This document shows, piece after piece, positions 10,575-33,319 of a stretch of 64,000 nucleotides of DNA. Below the pieces are notes generated by a model that was not told where the DNA came from, made no database searches, and saw only the letters and a program-made list of their open reading frames with translations. Made by a program: the position numbers and the translations under genes. Location: contig QPMI01000515.1 of the NCBI GenBank assembly GCA_004431415.1, forward strand, positions 1 through 64,000. Direction: 5' to 3'. Numbering within the stretch: position 1 is the first letter of the stretch; the number at the start of each line of letters is the position of its first letter. The stretch is from Cyanophora paradoxa CCMP329. Taxonomy: Eukaryota; Plantae; Glaucophyta.

Positions 10575-11699
10575 CTAGTTCCGTGCGAGCGGCCCCGGGA
10601 TATCCCATTTTAATTGCCCCTGGACTGGTATGGAGTATGTTTCATGATTTACTTTCAATAATCTTGAAAGGGACATGATTGTAATATAATGACCATTCCC
10701 TTCATCATCAAATATCAGCATGAGATTAACCTTATGCTTTCTGCCTGGGTTACTGGATTGATGCAGGGGATAAATAACCTCTCCATCGATTCCAAATATA
10801 TTAATGCTAATGCCTGCATTTTGAGCCTCGAATTTATCAATAATCTCAGCATCACAGGCAACAGGGAATGGGATGTTATCGAAATTCAGAGCCAGCGGAT
10901 TATAAGCGATTGCTGAGTATTTCCATTTGCGATATTGTGAAAGCTCATTCCTCTTATGGGAGTTTATCGCTTTTCTGTGAATATATGCCAAAATTGCATT
11001 TTCGAAGCAGGAATCATCTATATTTCGAATATTCACTGTGGCTCTCTTCCTAGCAATCCACTCTGGGGTTTGTAGAAAGCATCCACCAGTTGGAGCATAA
11101 CTCATAATAGCCACTCTGAGTATTTCGATTCTTTCCAAGCGATAGCTATCAACCACATTCATCTGCTCTTGACACATTTGGGCTGCTTTATTCAGCTCAG
11201 TTCGAATATTTCTCGACCTGGTTAATACAAAATAATCACTGTAAATGTATTTCGATATCCAAACCTGTGGATTGCTCACTTTTACGAACTTGCAGATAAA
11301 AGACAAGCGAACCTTGATTGCCCTGAATTGATCTAAACCCTGCTTTAATCGATTAGGAAGGGATGTAGCAATTCTGTCCAGGAATTCAATCACATCTACA
11401 ACAACTTCCCTTCTGGCTCTGTAAGTGAGCCAGCGATATAATTCATTCATGGCTGTTCCATCTTCTGCATCTGGTTCTATTTGCCTAAGCCTATCCAATT
11501 CATCCAAGGTTTCAATTTTATCATATAGGTTATTTGCTTTTCTGGTTAATCTGCTTAAAGTGGGTCTGCCCTTTGCAATTAAATCTATTTCCCGGTCATA
11601 TTCAGCCTCTGTAATTTCATGGGCTGCATAAAGTGTTCCCAGCAATCCCATGAGTTCCCATTTCTTCTCCCTTATGAGTTTGTTGGTAATTCGGGGCAT
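10575..11699 (-). pseudogene. N-terminal (vOTU-like/terminal protein) region of a Polinton-type protein-primed PolB, truncated at ~10,632
   Basis: Motifs YAPTGGCFLQTPEWI..KRATVNIRNIDDSCF, LNFDNIPFP, IDKFEAQN..ISINIF, IYPL, VNLMLI..GHYITIMSLSRLL. No exonuclease or polymerase motifs follow, and the last residues derive from the GC-richer flank. Confidence 0.75.
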
Positions 11700-11759
11700 T
11701 ATTCCTAACTTGTTCCTATTCTAAGGGGATATTTTATTTTAGGATGTTCTAAACGCAAT

Positions 11760-12110
11760 TTAAAATGTTTTAATGGATCCACTGGCTTCCTCTGAATGGA
11801 ATCGCAAAAACCTATTAATCCTAAATCGGGATTTCGGTTTTTGTAAATTGACTATCCAAGGTTCAAAGAGATACATGTAATATGCTTCTCTGTTCATTAG
11901 GTCTTCATGCCCACCCTTCTTACTTGAATACAGGACTGAGAACTTCACATCAGAAGCCTTGCATAGGTCTGCTGTAGATGGCATTTGACCTGATTTGTGT
12001 TGTCTCCATCTTTTTTGAAGTGGCTGTGAGGTTCTTCCTATGTAGACTTTGTTCATTTCCTGACTCTCAATCATATAGATCGATCCAGAATCATGATCTG
12101 TTCCAGCCAT
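11760..12110 (-). CDS. GIY-YIG endonuclease
   Basis: SIYMIES...VYIGRT...KRWRQH...NREAYY...N motif set. Confidence 0.85.
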   Translation of the reverse strand: MAGTDHDSGSIYMIESQEMNKVYIGRTSQPLQKRWRQHKSGQMPSTADLCKASDVKFSVLYSSKKGGHEDLMNREAYYMYLFEPWIVNLQKPKSRFRINRFLRFHSEEASGSIKTF

Positions 12111-12160
12111 TTCTTACTAGTTACATATAAATATATTTTTCTATCTCTTAAATCATTTTT

Positions 12161-12345
12161 TGGTTGACTTAGTGGGTGGAGTTGAGGCACTTTTTATTTC
12201 TTTTTAGGGCAGAGTCCTCTTTTAGAATCTGTGAAAAAATGAGTCAACTCCCCCCACTTAGTCAACCTAATCGATAAATAAACCATAAATAAAAGACTGT
12301 TTGGGTCTTTTATGATAAATTTGAGTCAACTGTGAGTCCACTTTT
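12161..12345 (-). repeat. Inverted copy of the terminal iteron-like unit (candidate replication origin)
   Basis: GGTTGACTTAGTGGGTGGAGTTGA...TCAACTCCCCCCACTTAGTCAACC inverted repeat; the whole unit matches 32141-32330 in reverse orientation. Confidence 0.75.
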
Positions 12346-12353
12346 GAGTAAAC

Positions 12354-14947
12354 CTAAACTTCAACATCAGAGTCATAATCTGATGCATCAGGATCAGCAG
12401 CAGGTAGTTCTTGTTTCATCCTTGGATTAGCTTCTTCCTCAATAGTCTCATCATCTACAAGCTTCATCTTTCTGAATTCCTCAAATACTTGTGGGAATAG
12501 GAAATGATAGTATTGTTTGCCATTTGTAGTTTTCACTTGGATATATGTAACACTTCTCATTTCAGTATAATATCGGCGACTATTATAATCGTTTTTATAT
12601 TTATTGCTGGTAATAAACTCCTGGAACCACTTCCAGGTTTCCACAAGGCTACCAGACTTGCATTTATTCTCGGAAATTAAGCCTCGATCCACAAGCCACT
12701 TAGTGAACATAAGAATGATTGGAGCGCACACCTGTTGGGCTAAATAGTATTTATTTGTAAGGGGTCTATCAGCAATCCAGTTCACATCCTCACATTCAAC
12801 TTTGGTTCTCAAATAGTGGGCAATGTTTCGAATATTGCAGTGATCATTAAGCCATTTTACAAGTGGAAGGAAGTATGACCTATCCTTTGCGAATTTCTTA
12901 CTAACTTCAACAACCACAAATCGCCTATCTCCAGCTTCAATTTTCACTGGAATGTTGTTATTGCTGGTGAATATAATCCTGGCAAAGTTGCTTTTTGTGT
13001 ATGAATCTATCCCTTTGTGTTCAATTACAATCTTATCAGAAGTTATGAGATCTTTGAGCATATCATTATTTTCGAATGTGTCCTTGCCTGAGGCTTCATT
13101 CACAACAATCAAGATCTTATCCTCTCTATTGTGGGCAAATCGACCAAACAGATCCTCTTTTGGCTTTCCAGTTGCATAACTTAGGGCATCTCCAAGTATC
13201 TTCTTTTGGAAAGTATCAACCAACACATTTTTACCAGTTCCCTGCTCACCAATGAAGATTAAGGATACTCCATTGAGTTCCCCAGGCTTTTGCAGCATGT
13301 GGGCAAACCATTTCAACAGATATTCATAGGTATTTTGATCCTCACCAGACATTAAGAACAAGTGATCAAGGAAAGGCTTAATCATCTCAGCAGTTACATC
13401 CTCTGGAGCATTTTCGAATTGCTGATGGTCGACCTTCATTCCTGGATAGAGATTAAATACAGACTTGCATTTTGCACTGAGAGTAGCAGGAGGTGGGAGG
13501 AAATCCATGTAAGTTGATCTTGTGGCTGTTGGATCCACAATCCATTTCCTAAATGATTGCTCCCATTTCTCTTTCTCATTATCTGTCCCCTCATTCACAA
13601 TCACCTTATGCATCAAGTGGGGGAAATGCTTTGTAGAGAGCTTCCCAATATCTTTGGGCATCCAGCAAAGTAGTTGTTCATCCCAGAGCATCACACAACC
13701 AACATTTTCAACATGATGCATTCGAGCATTGAAATACCTCTTATGCACATTGTAATGTTCAGCCAAAGGAGGGATACTTGCAGTCTTGTAATCGATTTCA
13801 TCTGTGTCCTCTGGTAGGAATGCATACTTTTTGGGGAAGAGTTCCTTGAAAAGCTCATTGTTATCTTTGCTCAACCAATAAACCAAGGATTTGAAGGTCA
13901 ACACTTTGCCAGGCTCAGCCTTCTTCTTGCTTCTGCGAAGCTGTGTAAACTTCTCCTGGCATTCATCATAATCATACTTGTCACTCTGTTCTGAGAATTG
14001 GTGGAAGAGTTCAGCTTGCATTTTAGGGGTGAACTTGTTGTCTTCCCCAACATTGATGATGACCAGTCCTACATCAATCCAAGTTTTATACTCATTAGCT
14101 CTCTCACCATTCAGACCCATTATAACACTTTGTAGCAGTTCGAAAGTAACAGGATTTTCGGGTTCAGTGTCTTTTTCAGCTTCTACCTTCTCAGTCTTCA
14201 CTTTATCACTTTTTGGCTCCTTTTTAACTGGTTTTGGCTCAGGGCTATAATTTGCGAATGCAGAAATATTCGATTCATCCACAAGTTTAGTAGAAGCTGA
14301 GAAGAAAGATACAAAGAAGTCCTCATTTCGCATTAACACTTTGTCACAGTCAACGAATTTCTTAAAGCAAACGTTTTTATCAACATCTTTCTTTGATTTA
14401 TTTTGAGCATCCAGAGTCTCACCTTTGCAGCAATTGAGGCAGATAAGGTTCTGTGTGGAGCTGTAAACTCCACTGTCATAATCCTCATTTTTCACCAATC
14501 CCATAGCTTTGAAAAGCTTGGGGATATCTTCATGTTTGCATGCAAGCGATTTAATGATAAAGTGGGCTGAGATCTTGAACTTGGTGACATCCTCCTTGAT
14601 CAAATAAACCCTTCTATGGCGAACTGCAACAGCAATATCGTTAATCGAAGTGGTCCCAGATCGCTTCCATAGCTTATCTCTCATCTCTCTTACAACAGTT
14701 TCAGCCTCAGCATAGTTTTCAGCAATGTTCTCCTTCAAATCAGCGAATTTATCCAGGTCCAGGTAAACTCTGGTGACTTGTTCAGGCTGAATGCATTCAG
14801 CCAGGTCTTAACCTTGCTATTATCAATGGCTTCAAGGGCATCTTCAGCAGAATCAAATACATGGGTGACCTTGTTGCGATCACCAATGAGAGTACTAAGG
14901 AATGTAGCATTTTCAACAGGGGTGGCGAATTTCTCGATTTTGTTCAT
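12354..14947 (-). CDS. AEP primase-PriCT2-D5-like SF3 helicase fusion (1-nt frameshift at ~14,808)
   Basis: The frame upstream of 14738 reads ECIQPEQVTRVYLDLD (AEP DxD). Downstream: KISAH, YDSGVYS, PriCT-2 (YKTWIDVG...FSEQSDKYD), Walker A GEQGTGKN, Walker B VVNE, motif C IFTSNN and DRRF. ORF 14735..14947 supplies the N-terminus. Confidence 0.9.
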
Positions 14948-15164
14948 TTTCGATTTTGGGGACTTCTACCTTTAACGAAGAAAATAATTTCGGAAGGAGG
15001 AATTGTCTTTTATATATATCCTATTATTTGCCAAGTCCTTAAGTAGTTTTGGGTCGGGATACTGTCTCGATATATAGGTACAGTTTTAAAAAAGAGGGAA
15101 GAAAGCTGTCATTTTTTTGCCTCCGATCAAATCGATTTCTACAAAATTTGTTTCGATCGAGAAT

Positions 15165-16929: not shown

Positions 16930-17724
16930 TTATAAACCGCGTTTATATCGCATCAATTTATTGCTATGGACTTGGCTTTTCACTTCTTTAGGGGCTTCCT
17001 CTTTCTCTGGTGGTTTCAGTTCATCTTCTTTCTTCTTGGGCTTCCTGTGGAAGCGAGGAAAATCGAAATCTCCAACTAAATCGGCTTTATCAACATAGTA
17101 GCCCACATTATACTTGAAAGATGTATAAACAAGGAATTGATATGAGTGGACATACTCTTCAAACAGTTGATAGAAATCTTCTTTGCGAGGAAAAGTCGAA
17201 AACTCCTCTGCAAATGCTTCCAGCTCTTTTTGATTGCTTGCACAAACCATAATTACTATATCACTATTGCAGCGAATAACAATTGCGACCTTTCTTAATT
17301 TTTGGGAAATAGTTATAATTGATATATTGACATGTCTGCCACGAACATAAAGCATTCCCACTGTTTTATCTCGACTGAGATCCAGCTGGTCATTTTCTAT
17401 CATATCCTCTAAAATCACCAGCATATGGTTAAGTTCTTCTCCTTTCTCCCTTTTTGCCTCTCTTTCTTTTATAATTTTCGACATGTATTGGGGATCCCAT
17501 GCACCCAGTTGAACAGTAGCAGCTTTGTCCCAAAAATGTGAAAATGAGGTAGCGGATATAATAAGTGTTGTATCAATCTTTTTGGCATCATGCAGCTGTT
17601 TCAAATAATATTTTACAGCTTCTGTTTTTCCGCATCCACTTTTTCCGAGTATGAGTAGTCTGAAAGGGGGTTCTATCATTTCACCAGCCACAAATTCATC
17701 CAGATCAGAACTTGGTATTGGCAT
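16930..17724 (-). CDS. A32-like (FtsK/HerA superfamily) DNA packaging ATPase
   Basis: Walker A GKSGCGKT, Walker B LVILED, RGRHVNISIITISQ, IRCN. Confidence 0.93.
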   Translation of the reverse strand: MPIPSSDLDEFVAGEMIEPPFRLLILGKSGCGKTEAVKYYLKQLHDAKKIDTTLIISATSFSHFWDKAATVQLGAWDPQYMSKIIKEREAKREKGEELNHMLVILEDMIENDQLDLSRDKTVGMLYVRGRHVNISIITISQKLRKVAIVIRCNSDIVIMVCASNQKELEAFAEEFSTFPRKEDFYQLFEEYVHSYQFLVYTSFKYNVGYYVDKADLVGDFDFPRFHRKPKKKEDELKPPEKEEAPKEVKSQVHSNKLMRYKRGL

Positions 17725-17780
17725 TGTGTATCTTTCTATAAAGAAACAGATAAAAATAATGCAAGGTGACTGAATATGGT

Positions 17781-18712
17781 TTACAGGTTAGATAGGAATC
17801 GTTTAATGCAACCCTCAATATCAGTTTCGGTGTATGGGATTCTTAGGAGTTTGATATTATTAGCTTCACAGTACCGATTTTTAATTCCATCACGAATTTG
17901 GGTATCTTCAAAGGCCTTCTGACCTCCAAACTGTTCCACAGGTTTGAAATGTTGTATACCATCATATTCAATTGCAATTTTGAGAGATGGAATATAAATA
18001 TCGAATGGGAGAACTCTTTTATGCTTGCAATCAGGAAATCTGTGGATATTGAGAAGTCTAAACCAATTTCTTTTAGGGCTGCTTGAACTTTCGTCTCACC
18101 AATAGACGATCTACATGACAGACAGCCATACCCATTGAGAAAATCACTTGGTGTCTTTTTGAATTCAAGATCACACTTTTTACAGATAATGGTAACTTTT
18201 GTTCTTGCATTTACATACTCAACTTTAGATAAATCGTAGTTATCTCCATAGAGTTTCAAAGCTCTCTCTGTGAATTTCTCAATCCCCATTTGCAACTTAT
18301 CTTTGATGCGATCCATTTTACATTTTGCATGCCCATCACCATGCATGTGTTTGTGTGGCTTTTGATTGAAATACTCTTGACATTTCTTACAGAATATTTT
18401 AATAGGGTCTTCTCCCTTAATATAAACAGATTCTGAATAGTCATAAAGATCTCCATGCTTTTCCGTCGCTCTTTTGACAAACTGTTCAGTGGTTAATCTA
18501 TTTGACATTCCCTTTTTAATATTCCCACATGAGGGACAACCACATTTCTGATTAATATGACTATGAGCAGCTTGCCAAAACTCAGTCTTGCAGGTGTTGC
18601 ATATAATATTAATCTTCTTCATGGTCCCTTCATAGATAACTTTAGAGTAATCATAATTATAGCCATGCACTTCGACAGCTTTTTCGATAAAGGACTTAGT
18701 AGTATAAGACAT
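17781..18712 (-). CDS. Zn-ribbon repeat (DUF723-like) plus C-terminal Vsr/PD-(D/E)xK-like endonuclease (1-nt frameshift at ~18,050)
   Basis: Three repeats F..KA...HG..YDYS...Y......I.C..C. The shifted frame continues LPFDIYIPSLKIAIEYDGIQHF...RDGIKNRYC..NNIKLLRIPY to the stop at 17781. Confidence 0.8.
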
Positions 18713-18785: not shown

Positions 18786-20156
18786 CTACAAATTTATACG
18801 ACGTAATCCATCTTTGTCTACAATAATAAAGCTATGCATGAGAGCGCGAACATTAACATCAATTGTCTTATCTGAAGGCATGTAGAGGGTGAGGAATGAA
18901 GATGAGGAATTTGTCAGGTCAACAAATCCACTTTGAGCAATATTTCGAATTGCCTTTTCTCCATCAAGGCAGAATGGGAGTCCTGAAAGGACATAGCGAT
19001 CAGCAACCTTATCCATGTTAGAGCATTTGAAGGCATCAGCAATTAGCTCAGCACCTTTGAGTAGGGAAATTGGCTCAGTGGCAAAAAGTCGCTGTCCATT
19101 TATTTCAGTTGTGAATGTGATGTCTTTGGAGTTGGCATAGGTCTTAAGAACACTGTGGGAGCCATTGGATTTGTCAACAGTTTCATGATCACGAACTGAA
19201 ACAAGCAGAGCATATACAAGACCTGAGATTTGAGAGAGGTTAATTCGATTGGGTTGGGCATTGCCCTTGGCAGGGAAAGCACTAGCATCTACAAATCCAA
19301 TATCAAGGGAGGGAATAGCCATGCCAGTTGTCTTAACCTTTTCAATGACAGTAGCGAAAAGCTCATCAGAAACATTAATAGCATGCATGTAAAGGCGAGG
19401 AGAAGTAATAGAAATAACAGGAGTTGTTGCACCAAGACTGAAAGTTGTGATATTTTGACCAACATGGGCAAGTGTGGCATTAGCAGTATCACCAAGACCA
19501 TCATCTTCTGTCTTATCAGCAACTGTCCCACCAACAACAGGGAGAGAGCGACCACCATAGGAAGTTTCAACATAACCCTTTCCAGCATCCTTAAACCAAA
19601 CAGTAACAACCATTTCACCAGATAAAGCACCAAGGGGAAGGTAGTGATTTAGCCAAGGCACAGGGATTTCAACAAAGAATGAGCCACCAAGGCGGTTGGT
19701 TCCATGAGCAGGGATGCCATGAACCATGCCCATTGATCGCTTCTTTTTAGCTAGTTGATCCTCCGAATAATAGACCAGGGGGAAATGAGCAAGGAAATCA
19801 GATGGAATATGGTAGGTGTAAGATCCATAGGTAATTTCAAGTCGCTGAACTAAAGCACCAACTGGGCGAGTGTATCCATTGCGAACTAGGTCAGTATCAC
19901 CAGCAAACGTGATGGCTGGAAGGTCGAAAGCAAGTTCGAGTTTTCCACAGAAATTGTAGCGAGGTAGCTTGAAGGAAATGCGATTTCCAACATTATTCTC
20001 AAAAGTATTGCTGGGATTCACAACAACTAGAACTGGCTTAGACTTGGATTCGAGACCAAGCATAAGGGAGTTATCCAGGAAAAAGGCTTTCGCCTCTTCT
20101 GGGGTTGTTAGGGCTTCTTTCAGCGAAAGTCTTTGAAGAGTGGAAGTGATATCCAT
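18786..20156 (-). CDS. Double jelly-roll major capsid protein (~456 aa)
   Basis: Size, beta-strand pattern (ISFKLP, LVQRLEITYG, FFVEIPVPW..YLPLGAL..MVVTVWF) and position between penton and ATPase; ATG at 20156. Confidence 0.85.
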   Translation of the reverse strand: MDITSTLQRLSLKEALTTPEEAKAFFLDNSLMLGLESKSKPVLVVVNPSNTFENNVGNRISFKLPRYNFCGKLELAFDLPAITFAGDTDLVRNGYTRPVGALVQRLEITYGSYTYHIPSDFLAHFPLVYYSEDQLAKKKRSMGMVHGIPAHGTNRLGGSFFVEIPVPWLNHYLPLGALSGEMVVTVWFKDAGKGYVETSYGGRSLPVVGGTVADKTEDDGLGDTANATLAHVGQNITTFSLGATTPVISITSPRLYMHAINVSDELFATVIEKVKTTGMAIPSLDIGFVDASAFPAKGNAQPNRINLSQISGLVYALLVSVRDHETVDKSNGSHSVLKTYANSKDITFTTEINGQRLFATEPISLLKGAELIADAFKCSNMDKVADRYVLSGLPFCLDGEKAIRNIAQSGFVDLTNSSSSFLTLYMPSDKTIDVNVRALMHSFIIVDKDGLRRINL

Positions 20157-20209: not shown

Positions 20210-21220
20210 TTATGCGAAGTTTGTAATAACTGGATAGGAAGGGTGAAGCTGTGACATTCGCATCTTGAAGTATTCATAAACTGGGTCCCCAGCTGGCTCA
20301 TCACCATAGCGAATTTCAAAGGTAAGATGAACAGGTTGACCCTCAAAATCAATTGGTTCATTAATAGCATTTACAATATCAACCGAGAAAGTGGATAATC
20401 CAACCTTTTTATTATAGTATTTGTAAAGTGGGTGAGCTTCTGTTGAATTGTAAACAACATGCTCACCATAGTCTTTATCAGGGACCACTATTTTGTGAAA
20501 GTAACCAGTCAGAAGACCATCCCCACATTGCACCAGATCACCCAGCTCCTTTACTCTTACAAACAAAACACTGTCCCTGGTCTTCTCAGGCTCAAAAGAA
20601 GATATAATGCCATTCACGCGACCACCAGTAAAGATTCCATCAGTGAGAGCATCATAGACCTGTGATTGGATTGGGGAGTTACCATATCTTCCAGGATCAA
20701 GACCCAGCAGTCTAGCTGAACTCAACAGCTTTTGGATTGTTTGTTGGCTTGGGTTCACAGCTACTGAGAAAGCCAAGTAAAATGGTACTGCTGAGTGGAA
20801 TATAATTCGTTTCAGTGATTCATCCCATTTGCAGCGAATGGATGGTTGGGGATTTCTGCCTTCGAATTTAGAGTTAATTACATTCACCAGTTGCTGGTGG
20901 CTTTGGATGGGGGTGTTTCGACTTATAATGAATTGTTTCCATTGTTCATAGTCAGCAGCTGGGCGAACTGTTGGAATTCCTGAGCTTCCAGCTCCAGGAG
21001 TTTGTTCAGAATAATAAATGCTAAATGCATTGTCAACTGTCACATCTCCTGCTTTGGTTTCACCACTCACCATAGGGATACTGTTATAAAATTCGGCTGA
21101 GACCAGTCTCACAGCCCTCACATTCTCATAACTACTGGGGAGTCTAGCCACAAAGCTTGATGTGGGACCATCACCAGAGATTGTATTAAATGAGCTAACC
21201 TCGATGTAATCCACAGGCAT
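20210..21220 (-). CDS. Minor capsid (penton) protein 1
   Basis: N-terminal YIEVSS...SFVARLP..YENVRAVRLVSAEFYNS and C-terminal LSTFSVDIVN....IDFEG..VHLTFEI, a single-jelly-roll penton signature. Confidence 0.8.
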   Translation of the reverse strand: MPVDYIEVSSFNTISGDGPTSSFVARLPSSYENVRAVRLVSAEFYNSIPMVSGETKAGDVTVDNAFSIYYSEQTPGAGSSGIPTVRPAADYEQWKQFIISRNTPIQSHQQLVNVINSKFEGRNPQPSIRCKWDESLKRIIFHSAVPFYLAFSVAVNPSQQTIQKLLSSARLLGLDPGRYGNSPIQSQVYDALTDGIFTGGRVNGIISSFEPEKTRDSVLFVRVKELGDLVQCGDGLLTGYFHKIVVPDKDYGEHVVYNSTEAHPLYKYYNKKVGLSTFSVDIVNAINEPIDFEGQPVHLTFEIRYGDEPAGDPVYEYFKMRMSQLHPSYPVITNFA

Positions 21221-21249
21221 TCTTCTTTTATCTATATTTATATATTAAA

Positions 21250-22182: not shown

Positions 22183-23728
22183 AGGCACCTGTGAAATCAA
22201 CTCTCATTGTGGGAGCATTCACATACACAAGGGGATAAATGCGAATATACTTGATTCTGAGAGAAAAACCTATGTAAAAAGCATCCTTGATGCTGAGAGG
22301 AAATCCACTCAATAAAGCAACATCACCTGAGTTGTGAGCATTGTTAATGTTCTCACAGACATATATTTTGTTCTGCCCATCTGATCGAATAAAAGACCAG
22401 TTGATCCCATCAGTGGATGTTGCCACATTGAAAGTCTTAATAAAAGCATTGGTGTCCCCTGAACCATAGGCAATAACAGAGGAGAGTTCGAAAGTATATG
22501 GGAAAGCAACTTGAAGGTATTCAGTGGGGGTTTCCCATATCTGCTCAGGAGCATAGGCTCCAGCTTCCCAGCCAAATGCTGAAGGTCTAGCCATGAAAGG
22601 CTCTTTACCTGTCACAGAGGATGAGGCAGTGAAGGCATCATCTGCAAGCTGATACCAATTTGCATCCAAAGGAGGTGATGTAGTGAGAGTGGATGATATG
22701 TAAGCCTTTGAAGGGTTCTTTAATTCATAGTTTGCTACTAGAATGCTGCAAAGCTTATTAATCATATCATTGTTAGCTGCTATGTAAGTTTCAGTGAAAG
22801 AAAGCATATCTGGGATCTTAGATGTGTCATCAAGGGAGCTTACTATGTGATTTGGAAGAGGGACTGATAGCCTGTAATATCTCCCATAATCCTGATCATA
22901 GTTGTAGGGTAACAACTCCTCCATCTTATCAAGGGCAGAAAGCTCACTTGCAGCCATGAGCATGTTAATCAATGGGCTTCCATCTGTTGAGGCAATCCAT
23001 GAGAGAATGCCCCAGCTGTTTACAGTCTCATAAGCATAACCCACATAATCAGACTCTAAATGTGGGTCCACCTCTCCACAAGAGATACTTATGACTATAA
23101 TGTCATCATCATCACTGTAAATTTTCTTTGCATGGCTGTAACCACACACACTGGGATTATTGTTTCCCGAAATGGCACCATCAATGAGACAGACATATAC
23201 TCCCCGATTGAAATCAACAATGCTTACAGGAGAGAAATATGTAGGAGCAGCAGAAGTAGCCCTAGCAGCAATCTTACAAGGCATAAAGTTGTAATTGTTA
23301 TCATTTGTAATAAATATTGGTTTCATATTCTGAGTGTCAAATGATGTGATCACAATGTCCTTTAGGGAATCCTGTATTAGTGATTCACCAGTAACTGAAT
23401 TAATTGCAGTCTCCAAGGGTCCGACATCATACTTTGTATTAAAAAGGGCATTTTCGATTATATTTCGAGGATTTGCGAAAATCAAGGGCAGTTGAGTTAG
23501 GTAAATATTGTGTAAATCGTTTGCTGTGAGTTTAGGTTCACCTGGTTTATCAGGATGCCTTATATTCAAACCTATTGCAATGATCCCACCAGTGGAAGTT
23601 CCACTCACAAGATCCACAAGATCGATTATTCTCCTGCCAGTTCGATTTTCGATTTCTTTGAGCAGCCTGGTTATGATAATGCCCCTTGCACCTCCCCCTG
23701 ATAAAGCTAAAGCAACCTTGAGAGGCAT
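22172..23728 (-). CDS. Patatin-like phospholipase fused to a C-terminal F5/8 type C (discoidin) domain
   Basis: GGGARG, GTSTG nucleophile elbow, SAAPTYF and DGA; then EYLQV.F...IKTFNVATSTDGINW...KYIRIYP...MRVD. Confidence 0.9.
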   Translation of the reverse strand: MPLKVALALSGGGARGIIITRLLKEIENRTGRRIIDLVDLVSGTSTGGIIAIGLNIRHPDKPGEPKLTANDLHNIYLTQLPLIFANPRNIIENALFNTKYDVGPLETAINSVTGESLIQDSLKDIVITSFDTQNMKPIFITNDNNYNFMPCKIAARATSAAPTYFSPVSIVDFNRGVYVCLIDGAISGNNNPSVCGYSHAKKIYSDDDDIIVISISCGEVDPHLESDYVGYAYETVNSWGILSWIASTDGSPLINMLMAASELSALDKMEELLPYNYDQDYGRYYRLSVPLPNHIVSSLDDTSKIPDMLSFTETYIAANNDMINKLCSILVANYELKNPSKAYISSTLTTSPPLDANWYQLADDAFTASSSVTGKEPFMARPSAFGWEAGAYAPEQIWETPTEYLQVAFPYTFELSSVIAYGSGDTNAFIKTFNVATSTDGINWSFIRSDGQNKIYVCENINNAHNSGDVALLSGFPLSIKDAFYIGFSLRIKYIRIYPLVYVNAPTMRVDFTGAFIR

Positions 23729-23771: not shown

Positions 23772-26700
23772 ATGAGCTTCAATTACCCACCAAATCTAGA
23801 AACCATTCAAGATGATAATGCAAGCAGCACCAAGCATGTGAACTTTGATAATATTAAAGTAAAGGGTTCAGTTTCAATTGACCACAGCTCTGATAATTCA
23901 TCAAAGACTCAATCAAGGGAGCATGCTTTATCTGTGAATCAAACCGATCCAGATAAAGAGGAGGTCAGTGTTGCTTTTAGTTTGGGTAATGTGAAAGCAA
24001 ACCAAGTGGCAGAGATCAAAGCAACAAGAAGGAGACCTAGGAAACTAAAAACCAGTGGCACTCACCCAGATATACCTTCCAGGTTCGATAGTGGTCGATT
24101 GATTTTCAATGTTCAAGATGAGCAGGGCAAACAGAACACAGCTTTGCGAATTTACAATGAGGGCAGCACTGCAAAAGCTGAGGTCCCCCAAGTATTGCAA
24201 GTGGGTCCCATTGCCAACACAAATCAGGTCTCCTACACAAATGATGTCTACCCCAAGGATATTACATATGACTTTGCAAGAAATGAGCCTTTTGGTTTCT
24301 TTACTCCAAAAGATGTCCATCAAAAAAAGCCATCAATTACAATCAACAGTAGCCCCAGTCAACCAGTAGCAATCCATTTACATCCTGATTTAGTCGAAAT
24401 GGATAGGCACCTTTTGCCTTTGTATAGCAATGTGAAAGACCTTGGAATTAGAACCAGGCAATGGCGAAATATCCATGGCAGCAATGTGTATGCAAATGGG
24501 GAGAAACTTGTGAGTGAGAAAACTCTAAGGGAAATAATTGAGCATTATGGTCCCAATGGACCAACAGTCCCATTCCCTATTCCATTTCCAAATGGACCTC
24601 CCGATTTAACACCAAAGAAACAGCCTGGAAGAGAATACACAGCAACTGAAGATGTAGCCTTTGGGCAGCATATTGTTAGTTGGGAGCAAGTTCGCAATAA
24701 ACCTATAATTGAACCCAGAAAGCAAATAGATGAGCAGTATTTACCTCCTGAAGTCGATATATTAGAGCTTGATGAATATCAATTCGTTCCAGATGAGGAA
24801 GAATATTTACCAGATGGTTTTGACCCACAAGAATATGAATATGATCAGTTTGACCCCAATGAGGAGGAGATACTACCAGATGGCTTAGATCCCCAAGAGT
24901 TTGAGTATGAGCAGAACTATGAACCTGATGAGGAGTATTTGCCAGATGGGCATGATCCACCAGCTGTTGATTATGAGCAACCTTATGAACCCATGAGGAA
25001 TTATTACCAGATGGATTTCGACCTGAGATCTGGGAGTTCTTTCCTGATTATGAACAAATTAATAATAAACCTGCAAAGTATCCCCAGAGGATCACAATCA
25101 TGATTGGGATGAGATCTTAGGCAAACCTCAGAAGTATCCACCAGAAGATCACAGGCATGATTGGGGTGAAATTGATGGGATTCCAACTGAGTTCCCACCA
25201 AGCAAACATGAACATATTTGGGATGAGATCAATGACCAACCAGAATTCGCAAAGGTGGAGCCTCTTGATAACTTGGGGGTTTCTCTTTACCAGACTTGTA
25301 ATATCCCTGAAAGAATCTTTTTGAATGAACACTATGTACATGTGAATGGGACACTTGCAAATTCAGCTATGAGAGGACCACTTCATATTAGGACATTACC
25401 AGGCTCTTTTGAAACCCCACCACCACCAGGAGCAACCATACCAAATATCTTTGTGTCAAGCTACATGGAGGCTGACATTCCCACAGATACATTCAGAGTC
25501 CCAACAGACCCAGCAACCTACCAAAATTACAACTCTGCTATACAGGTTCATGTAGCAGATGTAAGCAGCTTAGATGGCTCAAGACCAATGATAGTTTTCA
25601 GTCGAGATAAGTATTCCTACATTCCCATAGTGGGAACTGCAAATGATAATTATGGAAGGGCAGAGCTTGCATGGATTAAAACAGATTATGGTGGGGTTCT
25701 GGAAGCCAATCAAAGAATGGCTGCAAAAAACATACACAATGAGAGCATTTCGAGAGTAGTCACAGAGGATTACCTTCAAGCCCAAAACTACATAGATGAA
25801 ACAGAGCTGAATGTAATCATTGCAGGTATAGGTGTAACAGGCAATTACCTCCCTCTCACAGGTGGAATAATTGATGGAACAGTAACAGCATGTAACTTCT
25901 TTGTCCATACTGAAAGCAATCAAACCTTTCCTGTGGTTCATCCAGGAGGTGAGTATGAGATACCTGATGATCCAGCTATTATGCCCATTAAGATTGATCT
26001 CCCTTCTGATTATGTTGGAAGGGGTGAACTGAAGACCATTTCATTCACAGGAGACTACAATGATCTCATAAATAAACCTACTGCTGCAAATCTGCATCCT
26101 GTTGCATTTTCGGGAAGCTTCCTTGATCTTAATAATAGATCACACACCCACACAAAGGCAGAAATTACAGATTTTGCACACACTCACACAAAATCACAGA
26201 TAACAGATTTTGCTCACACCCACACCAGAGCAGATATTACGAATTTCGCTCACACTCATGTTAAATCAGAGATAACAGATCTTGGAAATGTTGCATATGT
26301 TGGTCACACCCATACCAAGGCAGAGATAACAGATTTTGCTCACAATCACACTAAGGCAGAGATTACAGATTTTGCACACACTCATGATTGGAATACAGAT
26401 ATCTATAACAAACCAGCAATTTTCTCAGGAAACTACAATGATTTGACCAATAGACCAACTCTTGATCCTTTCACAGCCACCACAATCAGAGCCAACAACA
26501 CAATGTATGTAGGATCAGGTCAGATTGTAGAACCAGCAGGACCTACGTTTGAAGAAACATGGTTCTTCCACAATTCGCAAACTTACTTTGATAAAACCTT
26601 ACTTGTTCGTGGAAATGCTTATGCAAGAAATTTCTATGCTATGAACCCTTCCAATAATCAGACTATTAGTAGATGTATCACAGAAGCAGATCTTTCCAGT

Positions 26701-27018
26701 CAACTCAATGCATATTTCAATGGGAAAATTCAAGCAGGAAAGTATGTTTACACTACTCCTGTTTTGAATTACAATAATTTATATGTGTTCAATCTAACTA
26801 TCTATTTTACCAATGCCTTTGCTTCTCCTCCTGTTGTGACAGCAACAGTAAGGCATGAAGGACAAGAACCAAATTATCAAGTAACTCCCGTCGTTTTTAC
26901 TGTGAATTTGTTGAATGTTTACAGTGATTATTTCACTTGTGAACTTTTCACTGATCCATATGCAATGAATAATTCATCCAAAACTGTAACGATCCATTAC
27001 ATTGCTGTCGCAATTTAA
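23772..27018 (+). CDS. Long fibre/tail-like protein (~1,080 aa; one 1-nt frameshift at ~24,992 joins ORFs 23772..25103 and 25255..27018)
   Basis: The shifted frame EELLPDGFRPEIWEFFPDY...HDWDEILGKP...KVEPLDN is open into the 25255 ORF. It carries phage-tail repeats HTHTKAEITDFA and YNDL.NKP, acidic LPDG repeats and a C-terminal F...F..PPVV beta head. Confidence 0.75.
24780..25030 (+). repeat. Coding tandem repeat, ~66 bp / 22 aa acidic unit (DEEYLPDGxDPQEYEYEQ), ~4 copies
   Basis: CCAGATGG recurs at ~24811, 24876, 24942 and 25007. Confidence 0.8.
26140..26390 (+). repeat. Coding tandem repeat, 36 bp / 12 aa (HTHTKAEITDFA), ~7 copies
   Basis: Directly visible in both the DNA and the translation. 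Confidence 0.88.
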
Positions 27019-27037
27019 CTATTTCGTAATTATAAAG

Positions 27038-28111
27038 ATGACCTCTCTATTAGAAATCCCAAACTATGAACTTGCAGCCAAATCACTTCATAGCACCTCT
27101 CATGGAGTAGTTGATTCAACCCCTGGGTATATTTGCACTGAAACTTCAAGTAATACCTCTTTCACAGAGAATAATATACTCAGATTCAAAGAAATTCGAT
27201 GTGATCGAAATGGAGGCAAGATAAGAACCACAGGGATAATTATCTCGAATAAAAATCAGGTTCAAGCAGGTCAAATAGTCCCCGATTCAGCAATATATGA
27301 TAATGTGGGTGGATTCACCACAGCAAAGATAGTTAATTTCGATAACACAATAAATAATTCGGCTCTTGTAGTCAGAAGTGGAGGAGCCTACATTGGTGAT
27401 GGAGCAATTGTGGTGGGGACTGTCACAGCAAATCAGTTGACTGTGAATGGGACAAGCAGTTTTACTCAATTAATGAATATCAACTCTGGTCTTTTAGGAA
27501 ATATAATTTATGGGACACTTCAAGCATTTCTGAGAGTTCAAACATCCGAAATTGGTACTGGAACAGATTCCAACATGACCTACAAAGTAAATGGTAATAC
27601 AATTGTCACTCTTGAAAAAACGACAGTTGCAGAGACAGAGATAAAATCATTCACACTTTCTCCAACTTGCTATCTGAAAAGGACCTATTGCCCAAGATTT
27701 TGTGTCACAAAACTGTTACCCAATCAGACAGTATCAACATCATCATGGGCATCTGGCTCTCAAGTTACCTTTACAGTTCCTAGTTTCGCCACTTATTATG
27801 TCAACAATGAAGGCAACTGGAATGATTGGTATTTATTTACTGCACCTGTTGCAGGTGTATACAGGGTTTTCTTCACAGCTCTCAGAGTAGATACTCAGAC
27901 TTCTTATGTGACTATCTTAAAGCTTTCAATAAATGGAATTGCATCCAATTACGAATTTCAATGTTCATTAACAGGACAAATGGCTATCACATACGAAACA
28001 TTAATTACTCTTAACATGGGGGACAGTGTTGGAATATTAAACTCAACAGGTGTTACTATCACTATAAGCCAACGATGTTACTTGGGCTGTTATCTGGTAA
28101 GCGCCATATAA
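27038..28111 (+). CDS. Fibre paralog 1: shared N-terminal domain plus C1q-like head
   Basis: KEIRCDRNGGK.RTTG...SGGAYIGDG; C1q motif FTAPVAGVY and L.L..GD.V. Confidence 0.78.
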   Translation: MTSLLEIPNYELAAKSLHSTSHGVVDSTPGYICTETSSNTSFTENNILRFKEIRCDRNGGKIRTTGIIISNKNQVQAGQIVPDSAIYDNVGGFTTAKIVNFDNTINNSALVVRSGGAYIGDGAIVVGTVTANQLTVNGTSSFTQLMNINSGLLGNIIYGTLQAFLRVQTSEIGTGTDSNMTYKVNGNTIVTLEKTTVAETEIKSFTLSPTCYLKRTYCPRFCVTKLLPNQTVSTSSWASGSQVTFTVPSFATYYVNNEGNWNDWYLFTAPVAGVYRVFFTALRVDTQTSYVTILKLSINGIASNYEFQCSLTGQMAITYETLITLNMGDSVGILNSTGVTITISQRCYLGCYLVSAI

Positions 28112-28133
28112 TATTGTCTGTGTAATATAAAGA

Positions 28134-29159
28134 ATGGCTACTCAAATAGCAGTCCCTGTTTTCTGTTATGCTGCCCCAAAAATACACCAACTTAACCATG
28201 CTGTAACAGATGCAACCCCAGGTTTTATTTGTACAGAAACAACTGGGGCAGATTCATTTTCGCAGAACTCTGTAATTAGATGCAAAGAAATTCGATGTGA
28301 TCGAAATGGGGGGAAGGTGAGAACCACAGGTCTCATAGTTTCGAATAAAAATCAAGTTCAATCAGGACAGATCGTTTCGGATTCTGCAATTTATGATGAT
28401 GTGGGAGGGTTCACCACACCCAAGATTGTTACTTTTGATAACACAAGTAATAACTCTGCTCTTGTGGTAAAAAGTGGAGGGGCATACATTGGAGATGGAG
28501 CAAGAATAAATGGGAATCTTACAACAGAACAAATCACAGTAACAGGAGCAACTACGTTTAATGATTTGGTAACAGCAAATGGGGGTGTGTATGTTCCTGG
28601 GGCGCAACAATCTATTGTTTCAGCAACTACCAAAATAGTTACACCTGAAATAGACACAGGATCAAGCGCAAATCTGGTTTTTAAACGCAATAGTGATGTT
28701 ATGGCGACCCTAGAAGCCAATAGTTTCACCCTGAATACAGGATGTTATTTAAAGTATGATTTTCAACCTCGATTATGTGTTCAACTTGGTTACACACACA
28801 CTGCTACAAGTGCTGCCCCTCTCATTAACTGGACAACAGTTTTTATTGATAACAGAGGTGCATTCAATGTAGGCAATGGAAGATTTACAGCTCCTGTTGC
28901 AGGTCATTACAGATTTACAGTAAACTCTGCCTCCACAACTTCATCTTCTGTAAGTCTTACTTTGCAGGTGAATGACACTAACCCTGGTGGTCTTTCCATT
29001 GGAACCTTTGGAACTTCGACAACAATTGCAGCAAAACCTCTATATATAAATGTTATACTCAATCTTGCTGCAGGAGAATATGTAACAATTGTCACAGGAA
29101 CCACAGGTAGTTATTCAAGTCGAACCATGTTTACTGGTGAACTTCTAAGTATCACATAA
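28134..29159 (+). CDS. Fibre paralog 2: shared N-terminal domain plus C1q-like head
   Basis: Same N-terminal motif; FN..NGRFTAPVAGHYRF, LNLAAGEYV, FTGELL. Confidence 0.8.
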   Translation: MATQIAVPVFCYAAPKIHQLNHAVTDATPGFICTETTGADSFSQNSVIRCKEIRCDRNGGKVRTTGLIVSNKNQVQSGQIVSDSAIYDDVGGFTTPKIVTFDNTSNNSALVVKSGGAYIGDGARINGNLTTEQITVTGATTFNDLVTANGGVYVPGAQQSIVSATTKIVTPEIDTGSSANLVFKRNSDVMATLEANSFTLNTGCYLKYDFQPRLCVQLGYTHTATSAAPLINWTTVFIDNRGAFNVGNGRFTAPVAGHYRFTVNSASTTSSSVSLTLQVNDTNPGGLSIGTFGTSTTIAAKPLYINVILNLAAGEYVTIVTGTTGSYSSRTMFTGELLSIT

Positions 29160-29180
29160 TTTTCTCACTATTAAGTAGGA

Positions 29181-29447
29181 ATGTCGAATATATACCAAGT
29201 TGTTCTATCTGATACCGAAAATTTGGGAATGGAGTACTGTGCTGCCTCTGTTCAGGATTGGATTGATAATGTTGTTCATAACAGGGCAAGAATTGCAATT
29301 GATGAGATTGTTCAGAAAGAGATTCAATCTTGTATCTCATCAGGAGTTCAAATACCAACCTCCAAGGAAGCAATTGTGTTGCAGGCTTTCCAAAGGGGAA
29401 CTGTAAAGAAAGGTATTGAGTATAATAATGTCACAGAAGAACAATGA
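29181..29447 (+). CDS. Small protein resembling phage fibre-associated proteins
   Basis: LSDTE..GMEY.A.SVQDWIDN...NRARIAIDEI pattern, recalled from small ORFs beside C1q fibres in marine phages (not verified). Confidence 0.55.
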   Translation: MSNIYQVVLSDTENLGMEYCAASVQDWIDNVVHNRARIAIDEIVQKEIQSCISSGVQIPTSKEAIVLQAFQRGTVKKGIEYNNVTEEQ

Positions 29448-29481
29448 ACATTATTTTTCTTTCCTTCTTAGTAAAAGAAGC

Positions 29482-30328
29482 AATGGGTGAATATAATCGA
29501 GTTCAACTGCCTATATATTCCCTTGGATCCCCTGCAATGCATTTTCGCCAGCATGAAGTAAATGATGAGGTTCGTGGTTTAGAATCCACAGAGAGACCCA
29601 ACTCCAATGGCAACTCCTTTGATAAAAATTCGATTATTCGAGTTAAAGAGCTGAGAGCTGATAAGAATTCTGGTGTGGTTAAAACAACTCGACTTCTTGT
29701 CACAAATGCTAACTTCTTTCAGCCTACTAATGGAGGTCCTGATGCTTACAGTGTTGATCTGAAAGCCCTTGATTATGATAAAAACACTGCTGCTGTAACT
29801 GTGAGATCAGGAGGAGCATTTATTGGTGGTGGCTGCAGAGTTTCAGGTCAACTTTCATCCTCAATTTCGTATAATGATGTCCCAGATACTCTTGAACAAA
29901 ATGTAGAGAACCCACAACGAATTCGATTATATATACCAGTTGCACAACAGCCAGTTATTCAATTTTACCAAGGTTATACTGTCACACTTGAAAACTCTGA
30001 ATTGATTGAAGGAACCAAAAGAGTAATGAGAGGGCTGGTCATTCCTTCTGCAATGCTTTCTTTATGTAGAGCCAACAATAACCAGCCAGGTCACAGATAC
30101 AATTTCAGTGTTCAGGGATATGATCATTTTGGCACAGGGTTCTGTGTCTATAATAACAATTTCACCTATGATCTGTTTGTTACAGATATTGGAAAATATA
30201 CAATTACAGTTATGGGTATCAGAACAGATATAGCTGCTGTCTCAGCTCTAAGAGGTGTTACTCCTGATACTCTTTCTCAAACAGGGTTTTACATGGAGCC
30301 AGATGTAATTGATGACCCAACCCCATAA
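29482..30328 (+). CDS. Fibre paralog 3: shared N-terminal domain, different C-terminal domain
   Basis: KELRADKNSGVVKTT...SGGAFIGGG; likely ATG at 29482. Confidence 0.72.
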
Positions 30329-30351
30329 AAGATATATCCCTTTAATGTAAA

Positions 30352-31185
30352 ATGGCTGAGCAACCCCCACTTGAACGAATTATTACACCTCAACTATCAT
30401 TAGCTGCCCCAGCAAACCATGTTCTACAGCATGCTACCTTTGATGATGTAGAGGGTCTCCAATCAACAGAGGTCCAACCTACAATGAACACCTTTGGTTC
30501 CACCCACAAACTGAGATTACAGGAACTCAGATGTGATAAAAATAATGGTATAGTTAAGACAACTAAGCTACTTGTCACAAATGCAAACTTTTCTGCCCAT
30601 TATGGAGACCCAGATAGTTATGGAGATCCTCTTTCTACTTATTCTTTTGAATCTAGGTCGGGAGCTATTAACTGCAAATCGGGGGGAGCTTATATTGGTG
30701 ATGGTCTTAGGGTTGGTGGGGCTGTTGGAGCGCCTTTATTTGTGAATGATCAACCCAATCCCATTGATCCCAATACAAGAATTCGAACCTATGTCCCCAG
30801 CATGAATGCCCCATACATTATAAAGATATTCCCCATTGTTGTGAATGAACAAACAGCAGTAGTAGACTCCCTTGTTGAGATTGGTGACCACTACAAGGTA
30901 GTTGTGGATATTCCACCAGATGTTTATGCTCTTTGTCAAGTAGAGGGTGGAACTCCTAATTTTGCTGTTGTGATCACCCCATATGATAATTTTGGAATTG
31001 CTTATCATGGAGTCAATTTCGGTTTAGAAGATTACCAGTTCTTAGTGAGAGCCACCAAGTTTGGTATCTACAAGTGTGTATTATATGCTGAGAGAACCGA
31101 TTTTATTGCAAGGCAGAATACCTATGCTGAATACTATGGCACAAATCGATATTTCCCCATTTTCGGGCAGGATACTGCTCCATAA
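30352..31185 (+). CDS. Fibre paralog 4: shared N-terminal domain, C-terminal domain related to paralog 3
   Basis: QELRCDKNNGIVKTT...SGGAYIGDG; YD.FG and R-T-D motifs shared with paralog 3. Confidence 0.72.
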   Translation: MAEQPPLERIITPQLSLAAPANHVLQHATFDDVEGLQSTEVQPTMNTFGSTHKLRLQELRCDKNNGIVKTTKLLVTNANFSAHYGDPDSYGDPLSTYSFESRSGAINCKSGGAYIGDGLRVGGAVGAPLFVNDQPNPIDPNTRIRTYVPSMNAPYIIKIFPIVVNEQTAVVDSLVEIGDHYKVVVDIPPDVYALCQVEGGTPNFAVVITPYDNFGIAYHGVNFGLEDYQFLVRATKFGIYKCVLYAERTDFIARQNTYAEYYGTNRYFPIFGQDTAP

Positions 31186-31509: not shown

Positions 31510-31908
31510 ATGGAGACTCAATACAGAGGCTTTCATGTTATGCTTGATTACAAAGCTAAATCAGCTATAGCAACAGGATATGAGCATGTGAGCTTTCTAG
31601 GGAATTGGATAATGGGAACCCTTGAACAAGCAGTATTGAGACAAGGTATTAGGATTGTTCATAAACACTGTGAGATATTTGATGGCAAACTATCACCTCC
31701 TGGTTTTGCATTGGTTCTGCTGTTAGATGAAAGCCATTGCACAGCTCATTGTTATTCCAATGAAGGCATGTTAGCAATTGATATATTCAGTTGTGGTAAA
31801 GAAGCTCAGCATAAAACACAATCAGTAGCAGATGAGATCGATAAAACAATGAATTTCTTAACATTTGAGAAGACTGAGAGACATAAACATGATAGATTCC
31901 CGTTTTGA
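31510..31908 (+). CDS. speD: Prokaryotic-type pyruvoyl S-adenosylmethionine decarboxylase family proenzyme
   Basis: 132 aa; G.H...D at the start, LLDESHCTAHCY (E|SH self-cleavage site), AIDIFSCG. Confidence 0.88.
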   Translation: METQYRGFHVMLDYKAKSAIATGYEHVSFLGNWIMGTLEQAVLRQGIRIVHKHCEIFDGKLSPPGFALVLLLDESHCTAHCYSNEGMLAIDIFSCGKEAQHKTQSVADEIDKTMNFLTFEKTERHKHDRFPF

Positions 31909-32099
31909 TGAGTTTCTATAATGATGATCAGGGTGATTTACCTTTTTTATTACAATAGCTTTCTACAATGATTATTTTCCGGATTCCGGACATTTTTTAC
32001 AATAGAATTCTACTGTATGATGTAGCCAAAATATGAATGCATCCTAAACCTACAAGTGTAAGATTTCGAATACTATTCGATTTCCTTACAATAAAACTC

Positions 32100-32960
32100 A
32101 ACAATCCCCTTGATTCCCCCTATTATATTATATTTATATTTAAGTGGACTCAAGGTTGACTCATATTAATCGTAAAAGTAGTAATAGTATATGGATTTTG
32201 TTACGAATTCAATGCAAGGGTTGACTAAGTGGGTTGAGTTGACTCAAATTTCACAGGAAATATTTGGGACCTAAAGTTTTCTAAAAAGGATTTCAAAAAA
32301 TGTGTCAACTCCCCCCACTTAGTCAACCCTGACCATAAACAGTAAGGATTTGAGCTAACAAGTATCACAAAGTGAACATATTGAGTCCACTTAGAAGATC
32401 AACCTAACAGTTTAGAGTCAAATTTACTTGGGAATTCGATTTGTATAAAAAAGTGAGTCCACCCTGACCATATTCAATAAGCATTCCTCTTAATCCCCTT
32501 GTTTATATTTACATTGATTAATATTTAATACTAAGTGGACTCATGGTTGATTCATATTAATCGTAAAAGGAGTAAATGTATATAAAAATGTGACCATTTC
32601 AATGCTAAGGTTGACTAAGTGGGTTGAGTTGACTCAAATTTCAGAGGAAATTTTGAGATCCAAAGAATATTCTATAAAAGATTTTGAAAAATGTGTCAAC
32701 TCCCCCACTTAGTCAACCCTGACCATATACAGTAAGCATTAGAACTTAAATGTATCACAAAGTGAACATTATGAGTCCACTTAGAAGATCCACTTTTGAA
32801 ATATAAGTTGATTTTGCTTGAAATTTCAAAGTTGATCTAAAAGTGAGTCCACCCTGATTGATTATGGTAACAAAGTTGACTAAGTTGACTAAGTTGAGTC
32901 ATCTTAAGAAATTCAAGGAGACTAAGAGTTCAAAATGTTTATGAAAAGTGAGTCAACTTA
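32100..32960. repeat. Two diverged ~390-bp tandem units plus a partial third, rich in GTTGACT/AGTCAAC and GAGTCCAC inverted motifs
   Basis: TAAGTGGACTCA at 32141 and 32532; AAAGTGAGTCCACCCTGA at ~32450 and ~32840. Confidence 0.85.
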
Positions 32961-32984
32961 GACCACTTATGGTAACAAAGTTAA

Positions 32985-33244
32985 ATATTTAATTGATTTA
33001 ATAGGAAAAGAACATGATTTAATCGAATTTATTGATATAATTCCGATTAGATTCATTTAGGATTCAATTAAGATTAATCGAAGTTATAGATATAATTCCG
33101 ATTAACTACAATTAAGATACAATATCGATTAATCGAGTTTATCGATATAACATCGATTAAATTAATTGAAAATGCATTTAAAAATATGAAAATTCATGTG
33201 AAAATTCAAATAAATTAATCGATTTTATTGATATAACATCGAAT
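32985..33244. repeat. Very AT-rich subterminal tract with recurring TTAATCGA/TCGATTAA/GATATAA motifs
   Basis: Repeated short palindromic words are directly visible. Confidence 0.6.
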
Positions 33245-33319
33245 CACACATATGAATATTCATATTTTAATCCTGAGGCGGAACGCCGAGGGATTAAAAT
33301 ATGAATATTCATATGTGTG
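33245..33319. repeat. Terminal hairpin of the PLV: perfect 29-bp inverted repeat around a 17-nt self-pairing loop
   Basis: CACACATATGAATATTCATATTTTAATCC (33245-33273) pairs with GGATTAAAATATGAATATTCATATGTGTG (33291-33319); host-like GC content starts immediately after. Confidence 0.92.

Follow-up and report, generated by a model that had tools for sequence, protein, structure and literature searches.

Which enzymes leave their mark on the DNA of a virus that resides in the genome of a protist? The question is raised by a window of 64,000 nucleotides from Cyanophora paradoxa CCMP329 (assembly GCA_004431415.1, contig QPMI01000515.1, positions 1 to 64,000 of the forward strand), which carries an integrated Polinton-like virus (PLV, in the broad sense) of 22.7 kb at 10632..33319. 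This viral island has a GC content of 0.388, against 0.59-0.73 in its flanks (0.39 inside), and it bears all of the word biases described here. The word signature is strong and real, it occurs in an element of known kind, and host methylation leads as the account of one of its three layers. In the reading that we prefer, and to which we give an even chance, the virus has lost CpGs in a manner graded by the flanking bases, and its loss of GGCC, of CTNNAG and, on one strand, of GTRC is a separate matter; loss of CpG would come from selection under marking by host methyltransferases of DNMT3/DNMT1 type, and the other losses from restriction-type enzymes of a co-infecting giant virus.

CpG occurs in the element at an observed/expected ratio (o/e) of 0.33, and 248 of its 284 CpGs are preceded by T or followed by A (TCG/CGA context). 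A preliminary description of the locus had supposed that base composition would place about half of them there, and the computed expectation is 0.518 (binomial p = 4e-37). In the two flanks CpG o/e is 1.22 and 1.16, and TCG/CGA shares are 535/1737 (0.31, expected 0.25) and 1092/3120 (0.35, expected 0.37). The manual counts given earlier for single genes held on recounting: the patatin gene, described as having about 14 CpGs all in this context, has exactly 14 of 14, and the great majority claimed for the major capsid protein (MCP), helicase and fibre genes corresponds to 22/26, 26/28 and, for five fibre genes, 10/12, 12/13, 10/14, 9/9 and 8/9. ACGT, GCGC and CCGG, said to be nearly absent from the virus and dense in the flanks, number 6, 7 and 5 in the element (0.22-0.31 per kb) versus 3-25 per kb in the flanks. 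Contigs of other public sequencing runs match the element at 99% or more over long pieces, so that its word bias is not a base-calling artefact.

Codon controls were performed on a coding set of 20 open reading frames (ORFs; 18,957 bases), the small ORFs at 15086-16144 being placed outside both the coding and the non-coding sets. When synonymous codons were shuffled, 8 of the 10 NCGN classes were found to be depleted (z -3.0 to -7.8), TCGA was not (78 vs 75) and GCGA/TCGC not significantly so (61 vs 69). Under a stricter null, in which dinucleotides at codon junctions were also fixed, the TCG/CGA share was 0.892 observed vs 0.787 +/- 0.019, a value reached by 0 of 100 shuffles; codon usage therefore carries part of the CpG-context signal, and not all of it. 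Every codon frame shows the bias (88/94, 39/47 and 72/82), as does the element's non-coding DNA (30/36). Base composition or codon usage as sole cause was thus ruled out, the bias having persisted under both codon nulls instead of vanishing.

The rule first proposed, that TCG/CGA is spared and VCGB (CpG neither preceded by T nor followed by A) is hit, stands for VCGB, which is depleted, and has to be amended for the spared class, which is not uniform. Only TCGA is at expectation (o/e 1.21), followed by TCGC/GCGA (0.68), TCGG/CCGA (0.38) and TCGT/ACGA (0.27), with the other NCGN words at 0.03-0.22. A binary spared/not-spared model was rejected (deviance 98, 8 degrees of freedom, Akaike information criterion [AIC] 147), and a per-strand multiplicative model with four factors fits (deviance 10.7, 6 degrees of freedom, p = 0.10, AIC 64; uniform model, AIC 308). 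The survival factors by base 5' of the C are 0.21 for A, 0.32 for C, 0.51 for G and 1.14 for T, and TCGA alone escapes because the 5'-base factors of the two strands multiply. Symmetric counts cannot separate a 5' T rule from a 3' A rule, whereas frame-resolved counts can; these indicate that both matter and that 5' T on the coding strand is the stronger. At position -2, TTCG (0.97) and ATCG (0.74) survive better than CTCG (0.34) and GTCG (0.35). Surviving CpGs lie in AT-rich flanks to about 5 nt on each side (an AT share of mostly 0.71-0.79 by offset, compared with some 0.6 around GpC), a soft preference and not an exact site, so that the pattern looks like that of an enzyme with a soft flank preference. 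A stack of palindromic CG restriction sites was rejected as the cause of the CpG layer, since non-palindromic words (ACGG 0.03, ACGC 0.06, CCGC 0.14) are depleted no less than palindromic ones (ACGT 0.08, CCGG 0.16, GCGC 0.22).

A second layer is made of short palindromes. Among 128 patterns compared with trinucleotide-preserving shuffles, the leading depleted sites are GGCC (1 vs 25), GTAC (9 vs 42) and CTNNAG (32 vs 88). The depletion is found in every frame: 0, 1 and 0 vs 7.8, 4.2 and 11.8 for GGCC, 6, 21 and 2 vs 21.7, 44.2 and 10.9 for CTNNAG, and 1, 4 and 2 vs 13.1, 18.5 and 13.8 for GTAC. GGCC and CTNNAG thus appear to have been purged like restriction sites, and the systems avoided may be those of giant viruses. 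CTAG, AANTT/AANNTT and TCNGA are still weakly low; TGNCA, GANTC, GGNCC, TTNAA and longer gapped words, low against dinucleotide expectation, were discarded when their depletion weakened or vanished under the codon nulls.

The third layer concerns one strand only. The + strand holds 36 GCAC and 3 GTGC (p = 4e-8, first of 114 pairs), and the three GTGC sites (28810, 28858 and 29239) all lie in the fibre gene cluster. Genes on the minus strand have 0 coding GCAC vs 24 expected and those on the plus strand 3 coding GTGC vs 20; Ala before C is never encoded by GCA in minus-strand genes (0/40), and Val before C never by GTG or GTA in plus-strand genes (0/37). The polarity therefore tracks the genome strand, whatever the orientation of the gene (Fisher p = 9e-8, among 111 pairs). 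Taken with the loss of GTAC, it reads as a single motif, GTRC, barred from the + strand. The symmetric site GYRC was rejected, as its GTGC/GCAC part is strand-polarised. Nine GTAC sites persist, and head-to-head pairs therefore still exist if the site is GTRC. Among variants of the sister contigs (40 of 2,822 and 34 of 284 entries examined), one would introduce a GTGC into the avoided strand, within the fibre region. CA outnumbers TG on the + strand whichever way the genes point (776/626 vs 727/862, p = 2e-7), which suggests one-directional replication or strand-biased deamination.

Exclusion of a site from one strand is a described escape from two-site (Type I/III) enzymes (PMC6286503), and a two-site or nicking nuclease is the first candidate for the loss of GTRC, held at somewhat less than even probability; no candidate enzyme of GTRC specificity was found. 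Bacteriophage T7 is an example of such an escape, and none of this kind was found for a eukaryotic virus in literature searches. The strongest competitor, for this layer only and with a lower probability than the nuclease, is that GTRC is the word of the virus's own primase, kept off the leading-strand template of a one-directional fork. That the bias tracks the genome strand is what such a fork would produce, CA/TG is skewed by genome strand as well, a free relative of the element (L002) shows polarity in a word of its own that contains GTG (CACC/GGTG, p = 2e-7), and the primase of pRN1 needs GTG on its template (PMC2965215). Set against these points, the tolerated strand shows no enrichment of the word (ratios 1.04 and 0.72), GTGA, GTGG and GTGT have not been cleared, and the summed depth of contigs is much lower over the helicase region than over the capsid region, which hints weakly at an exchangeable helicase gene, whereas the bias spans the whole element. 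The remaining weight lies on causes other than a nuclease or priming. One-strand loss of GTRC is explained by neither the CpG nor the palindrome account and points to an orientation-sensitive enzyme.

For the CpG layer, it had been proposed that a host methyltransferase or sensor acts on CpG and spares some contexts. This stands in so far as a CpG-reading enzyme with flank preference is the best account of that layer and the probable host has both DNMT1 and DNMT3. It fails as an account of the whole: the rule is graded per strand, and GGCC, GTAC, one-strand GTGC and CTNNAG, whose loss a host CpG methyltransferase cannot explain as they contain no CpG, are lost as strongly. For C. paradoxa, 32% CpG methylation, two DNMT1 and one DNMT3 are reported, and repeats and viral genes are enriched in methylation (PMC12344493); the sections searched of that source and of its supplement text give dinucleotide and CHG/CHH contexts only. 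Mammalian DNMT3A prefers C and A at -1 and disfavours T most (PMC9530848), and its -1 order is the order of CpG loss in the element. The flank preference of M.SssI differs from that order. The CpG pattern would then work like a DNMT footprint, its likeness at -1 being to mammalian enzymes of which the host's is a distant orthologue. As we picture it, host methyltransferases of DNMT3/DNMT1 type would mark the CpGs of integrated virus; copies with fewer methylatable CpGs may be silenced less, or may lose fewer essential codons to deamination, and such CpG-poor copies would found the next round of insertions, while a helper giant virus with restriction-type enzymes would drive the loss of the other words.

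Several observations weigh against this combination of host marking and giant-virus restriction. The CpG-rich flanks would face the same methyltransferases and yet show no CpG loss (1.22 and 1.16). DNMT3A strongly prefers T at -2, whereas TTCG survives best in the element (PMC9530848), and mammalian DNMT1 ranks TCCGTA and TACGGA high and G at -1 low (PMC7381644), a partial match at best. TCG is tolerated more than CGA on the coding strand in matched duplex words (Cochran-Mantel-Haenszel p = 7.5e-4; odds ratios 5.4-6.7 vs 2.1-2.6), an asymmetry that is not predicted by a purely duplex-level mark, and for the left half by itself the four-factor model fits less well (p = 0.016). Cyanophora as the viral host is itself suggested by one capsid homologue. 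The free relatives used for comparison are distant, sharing only a helicase lineage of 23-36% identity with the element, and one of them (L001) has CpG at 0.96 and yet a TCG/CGA share of 0.80 (expected 0.58), with VCGB at 0.46.

These relatives are eleven free contigs of IMG/VR retrieved through helicase homologues (about 6 independent groups; L011 is a weak match), 3 of which were checked for PLV-like gene content. They bear on a more economical scheme, in which the helper giant virus is the source of every layer, supplying a methyltransferase or nuclease that reads CG with a preference for certain flanks as well as GGCC, CTNNAG and GTRC enzymes, and the host methylome has no role. It would give all layers a single source and would explain why CpG is kept in the host flanks, and C. 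paradoxa does carry giant-virus insertions. We nevertheless regard it as unlikely, a step below the primase word. All 11 contigs have CpG o/e of 0.84-0.97 (TCGA 0.07-0.79), so that none of them (0/11) shows general CpG loss and relatives lose palindromes only; in the 5 relatives tested, non-palindromic CG words are at 0.60-1.72. A smooth multiplicative gradient is also unlike exact-site cutting, and such an enzyme has not been seen. The 5 relatives that were scanned avoid palindrome sets of their own, including GATC, CATG, GTNNAC and TGNNCA; L010, for instance, avoids GATC, GTNNAC, TCGA and CATG. GATC and CATG are restriction sites of PBCV-1, and AaV methylates CTNNAG, GTNNAC and TGNNCA by methyltransferases for which the text of PMC12700378 gives no identified nuclease partner (both from PMC12700378).

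Minor features of the same contigs were also recorded. L001, a contig of 4 kb, has TCGC at 2.8 and is without GGCC or CTAG. In L002, CCACC occurs 21 times and GGTGG once among the matches listed, and the polarity holds after control for gene strand; in L010, GCTC occurs 17 times and GAGC once among the matches listed, with no clear polarity after the same control.

Passive decay, in which context would set the rate at which methylated CpGs of integrated copies deaminate and the sites would be under no selection, is improbable. The excess of TG+CA (1432) does cover the deficit of CG (1142), as decay would require, and four-fold sites before G carry more T than sites before A or T together (p = 7e-8); most of that excess is gone when sites before T alone serve as control (92/81 vs 192/154). 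A T stands before 67 of the 94 CGN codons for Arg (control 0.33, p = 5e-14); after T, 67 of 106 Arg codons are CGN, and after other bases 27 of 159. At Arg residues conserved in homologues (three genes), where deamination alters the protein, 25 of 27 CGN codons are still in TCG/CGA context. The C and G of these codons cannot change silently by deamination and yet follow the rule, which argues for selection rather than passive decay: flanking synonymous bases have been adjusted even where the CG itself cannot change. The pattern would arise equally from selection against silencing, against cleavage or against mutational load. Differences between sister contigs, moreover, are not mainly C>T/G>A (500 vs 582 T>C/A>G places, run X1). 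In the variant entries examined, four changes create a CpG, all of them in TCG/CGA context (small numbers), and the ACGT at 19908 is missing from most sister contigs.

Least probable of all is an effect on RNA or translation, by a host sensor of CG in viral mRNA or a codon-pair preference that tolerates UCG, which would fit the coding-strand asymmetry (TCGB > VCGA) and the preference of the MCP gene for T|CGC at Arg, but fails on non-coding DNA, biased on both strands, on antisense contexts, which count too (3' A odds ratio 2.1-2.6), and on a bias that outlasts the codon-usage nulls.

Under the preferred reading of host marking plus giant-virus restriction, the genome may, more tentatively, be a record of three enzymes: the flank preference of a glaucophyte DNA methyltransferase, the GGCC and CTNNAG specificities of an unisolated Cyanophora giant virus, and an orientation-sensitive GTRC nuclease or primase. 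If so, word signatures could pair Polinton-like viruses with helper giant viruses at scale, and the avoided words would constitute a sequence-only test of helper dependence. This bears on which giant virus a PLV needs and on whether giant viruses turn restriction enzymes on such parasites; the latter was proposed, and not supported in Acanthamoeba systems (PMC7253447). The CpG gradient is a quantitative prediction that can be checked in existing Cyanophora methylation data, and, if it is borne out, an integrated virus evades silencing by shedding its targets and not by encoding TET.

Glaucophyte PLVs described previously resemble the element in host group, patatin-discoidin fusion, PTR fibre repeats and size range (PMC12220804). 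Their methylases are proposed as a guard against giant-virus restriction enzymes (PMC12220804), whereas the element, in which profile searches detected no methyltransferase gene (the copy being incomplete), appears to avoid the sites instead. Near-complete loss of short palindromes is shared with phages that avoid restriction sites (PMC6286503); in the text of that study eukaryotic viruses are a negative control with no systematic strand-asymmetric avoidance, whereas the element is a eukaryotic virus and the enzyme would be another virus's. In Amoebidium, a similar setting, protist CpG methylation with a trinucleotide preference silences Polinton-related adintoviruses; its context (CGC/GCG) is unlike that of the element, and the passages searched report no viral CpG loss (PMC11244446). 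The depletion of AGCT in pandoraviruses (10.1101/712018) is likewise a stringent and unexplained 4-mer loss in a protist DNA virus, but concerns a single palindrome in a giant virus, where the element has several layers, one graded and one strand-specific. Punuivirus, a TET-encoding endogenous virus (10.64898/2026.10.09.758095), and the Alpensee/GKS2 PLVs with TET (10.64898/2026.06.19.733378) face the same problem of keeping methylation off while they lie in a host genome; for them, erasure of the mark is proposed, where the element would shed its target. No paper on word avoidance or CpG loss in PLVs or virophages was found by a search that did not extend to figures and bioRxiv supplements, and the term CpG is absent from the main text of PMC10120064, PMC12220804, 10.64898/2026.06.19.733378 and 10.64898/2026.07.28.741278.

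The PLV hallmarks present are a double jelly-roll MCP, an A32-type ATPase and an own primase-helicase. The right end of the copy is whole and the left end is truncated within an ORF that runs into the flank (10632..11699, - strand); profile and database searches gave no match for this ORF, which may resemble the N-terminal part of Polinton pPolB. One sister contig extends beyond 10662. There follow, on the - strand, a GIY-YIG endonuclease (11760..12110; PF01541, E = 1e-10) and, beyond a repeat block (12160..12352), a primase-helicase (PriCT_2 + DUF5906) at 12354..14684 (TIGR01613, E = 4e-11; 27 homologues, identity 23-36%), an A32-type packaging ATPase (16930..17724; PF04665, E = 1.5e-13) and an HNH-type endonuclease (17843..18712). 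The HNH gene is missing from some sister contigs (joint 17777-18786 in three runs), and is thus a mobile insert; it obeys the same CpG rule (10/11 in TCG/CGA). Contigs from host runs include many sister variants, so that the element belongs to a multi-variant family. DNA of close relatives was found neither via the MCP (viral and metagenome contigs) nor via the ATPase (one search) or the helicase homologue P0006, and a 13-row helicase alignment was too divergent to serve as a query.

The MCP (456 aa; 18786..20156, - strand) has as its sole close named homologue a Cyanophora paradoxa EukProt protein (60% identity), and an Atlas score of 0.98 to Capsid_N clusters. A first structure model (predicted local distance difference test score, pLDDT, 37) was set aside. 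With a second, low-confidence model (pLDDT 44), each of the 10 best fold matches is a double jelly-roll capsid or scaffold protein, among them the capsids of EhV-201 (Z 13.1, root mean square deviation [rmsd] 3.0, 151 aligned) and PBCV-1 (Z 11.6, rmsd 7.9, 300 aligned); Sputnik (Z 7.0) and mavirus (Z 6.0) score below giant-virus capsids (Z 10-13). Two divergent ORFs beside it (20210..22182) gave no family match in Pfam and further profile searches, and are presumably minor capsid proteins. A patatin phospholipase fused to a discoidin domain (22172..23728, - strand), the fibre gene cluster with PTR and C1q (25369..31185, + strand) and an S-adenosylmethionine decarboxylase (31510..31908, + strand; PF02675, E = 4e-11) complete the gene set. 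The predicted role of this last enzyme in a small virus could be to lower the methyl donor of DNA methyltransferases, or to make polyamines.

The right end carries terminal arrays of direct and inverted repeats (32130..33243) and a terminal hairpin (33245..33319; 36-nt arms with a small internal mismatch, -33.6 kcal/mol, z -12.7). The motifs of the repeat block adjoining the helicase gene recur at 32130-32987 in direct and inverted orientation and are candidate origin motifs. AT-rich repeats of 55 nt (33019-33269) precede the hairpin, and CpG in them is mostly in TCG/CGA context. No integrase or terminal inverted repeats were found in the copy, whose left end is cut off, and the profile search of the element's ORFs, in an incomplete copy, gave no match to a virophage-type cysteine protease.

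The CpG-rich left flank was previously suggested to meet the same methylation problem enzymatically. It contains an intron-split, TET/JBP-like gene end (9812..10290, + strand), which we treat as a lead only: the HxD..H..R pattern is visible across introns, the Atlas score (0.87, below the 0.9 line) is to a cluster of which 19% of the members carry Tet_JBP, and there is no match in Pfam, PHROG, NCBIfam or PDB. It is plausible, by analogy with the TET-bearing endogenous viruses, that this candidate would solve the same problem as the virus. It ends a CpG-rich, intron-bearing unit (5200-10290) that has no database match and that we assume may be a KDZ-type transposon. No TET/JBP match was obtained in the 105 of 150 right-flank ORFs that were scanned. 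The right flank is enriched 1.3-1.9-fold in GTAC, TATA, TGCA, AGCT and GATC, and non-coding host DNA at 57900-62100 is crowded with short palindromes, the opposite of the virus. An intron-rich host gene with many cysteine-rich Ephrin_rec_like repeats occupies 44500-55000 (- strand), and the sequence near 63780-63990 resembles that at 36920-37160, which suggests a local duplication.

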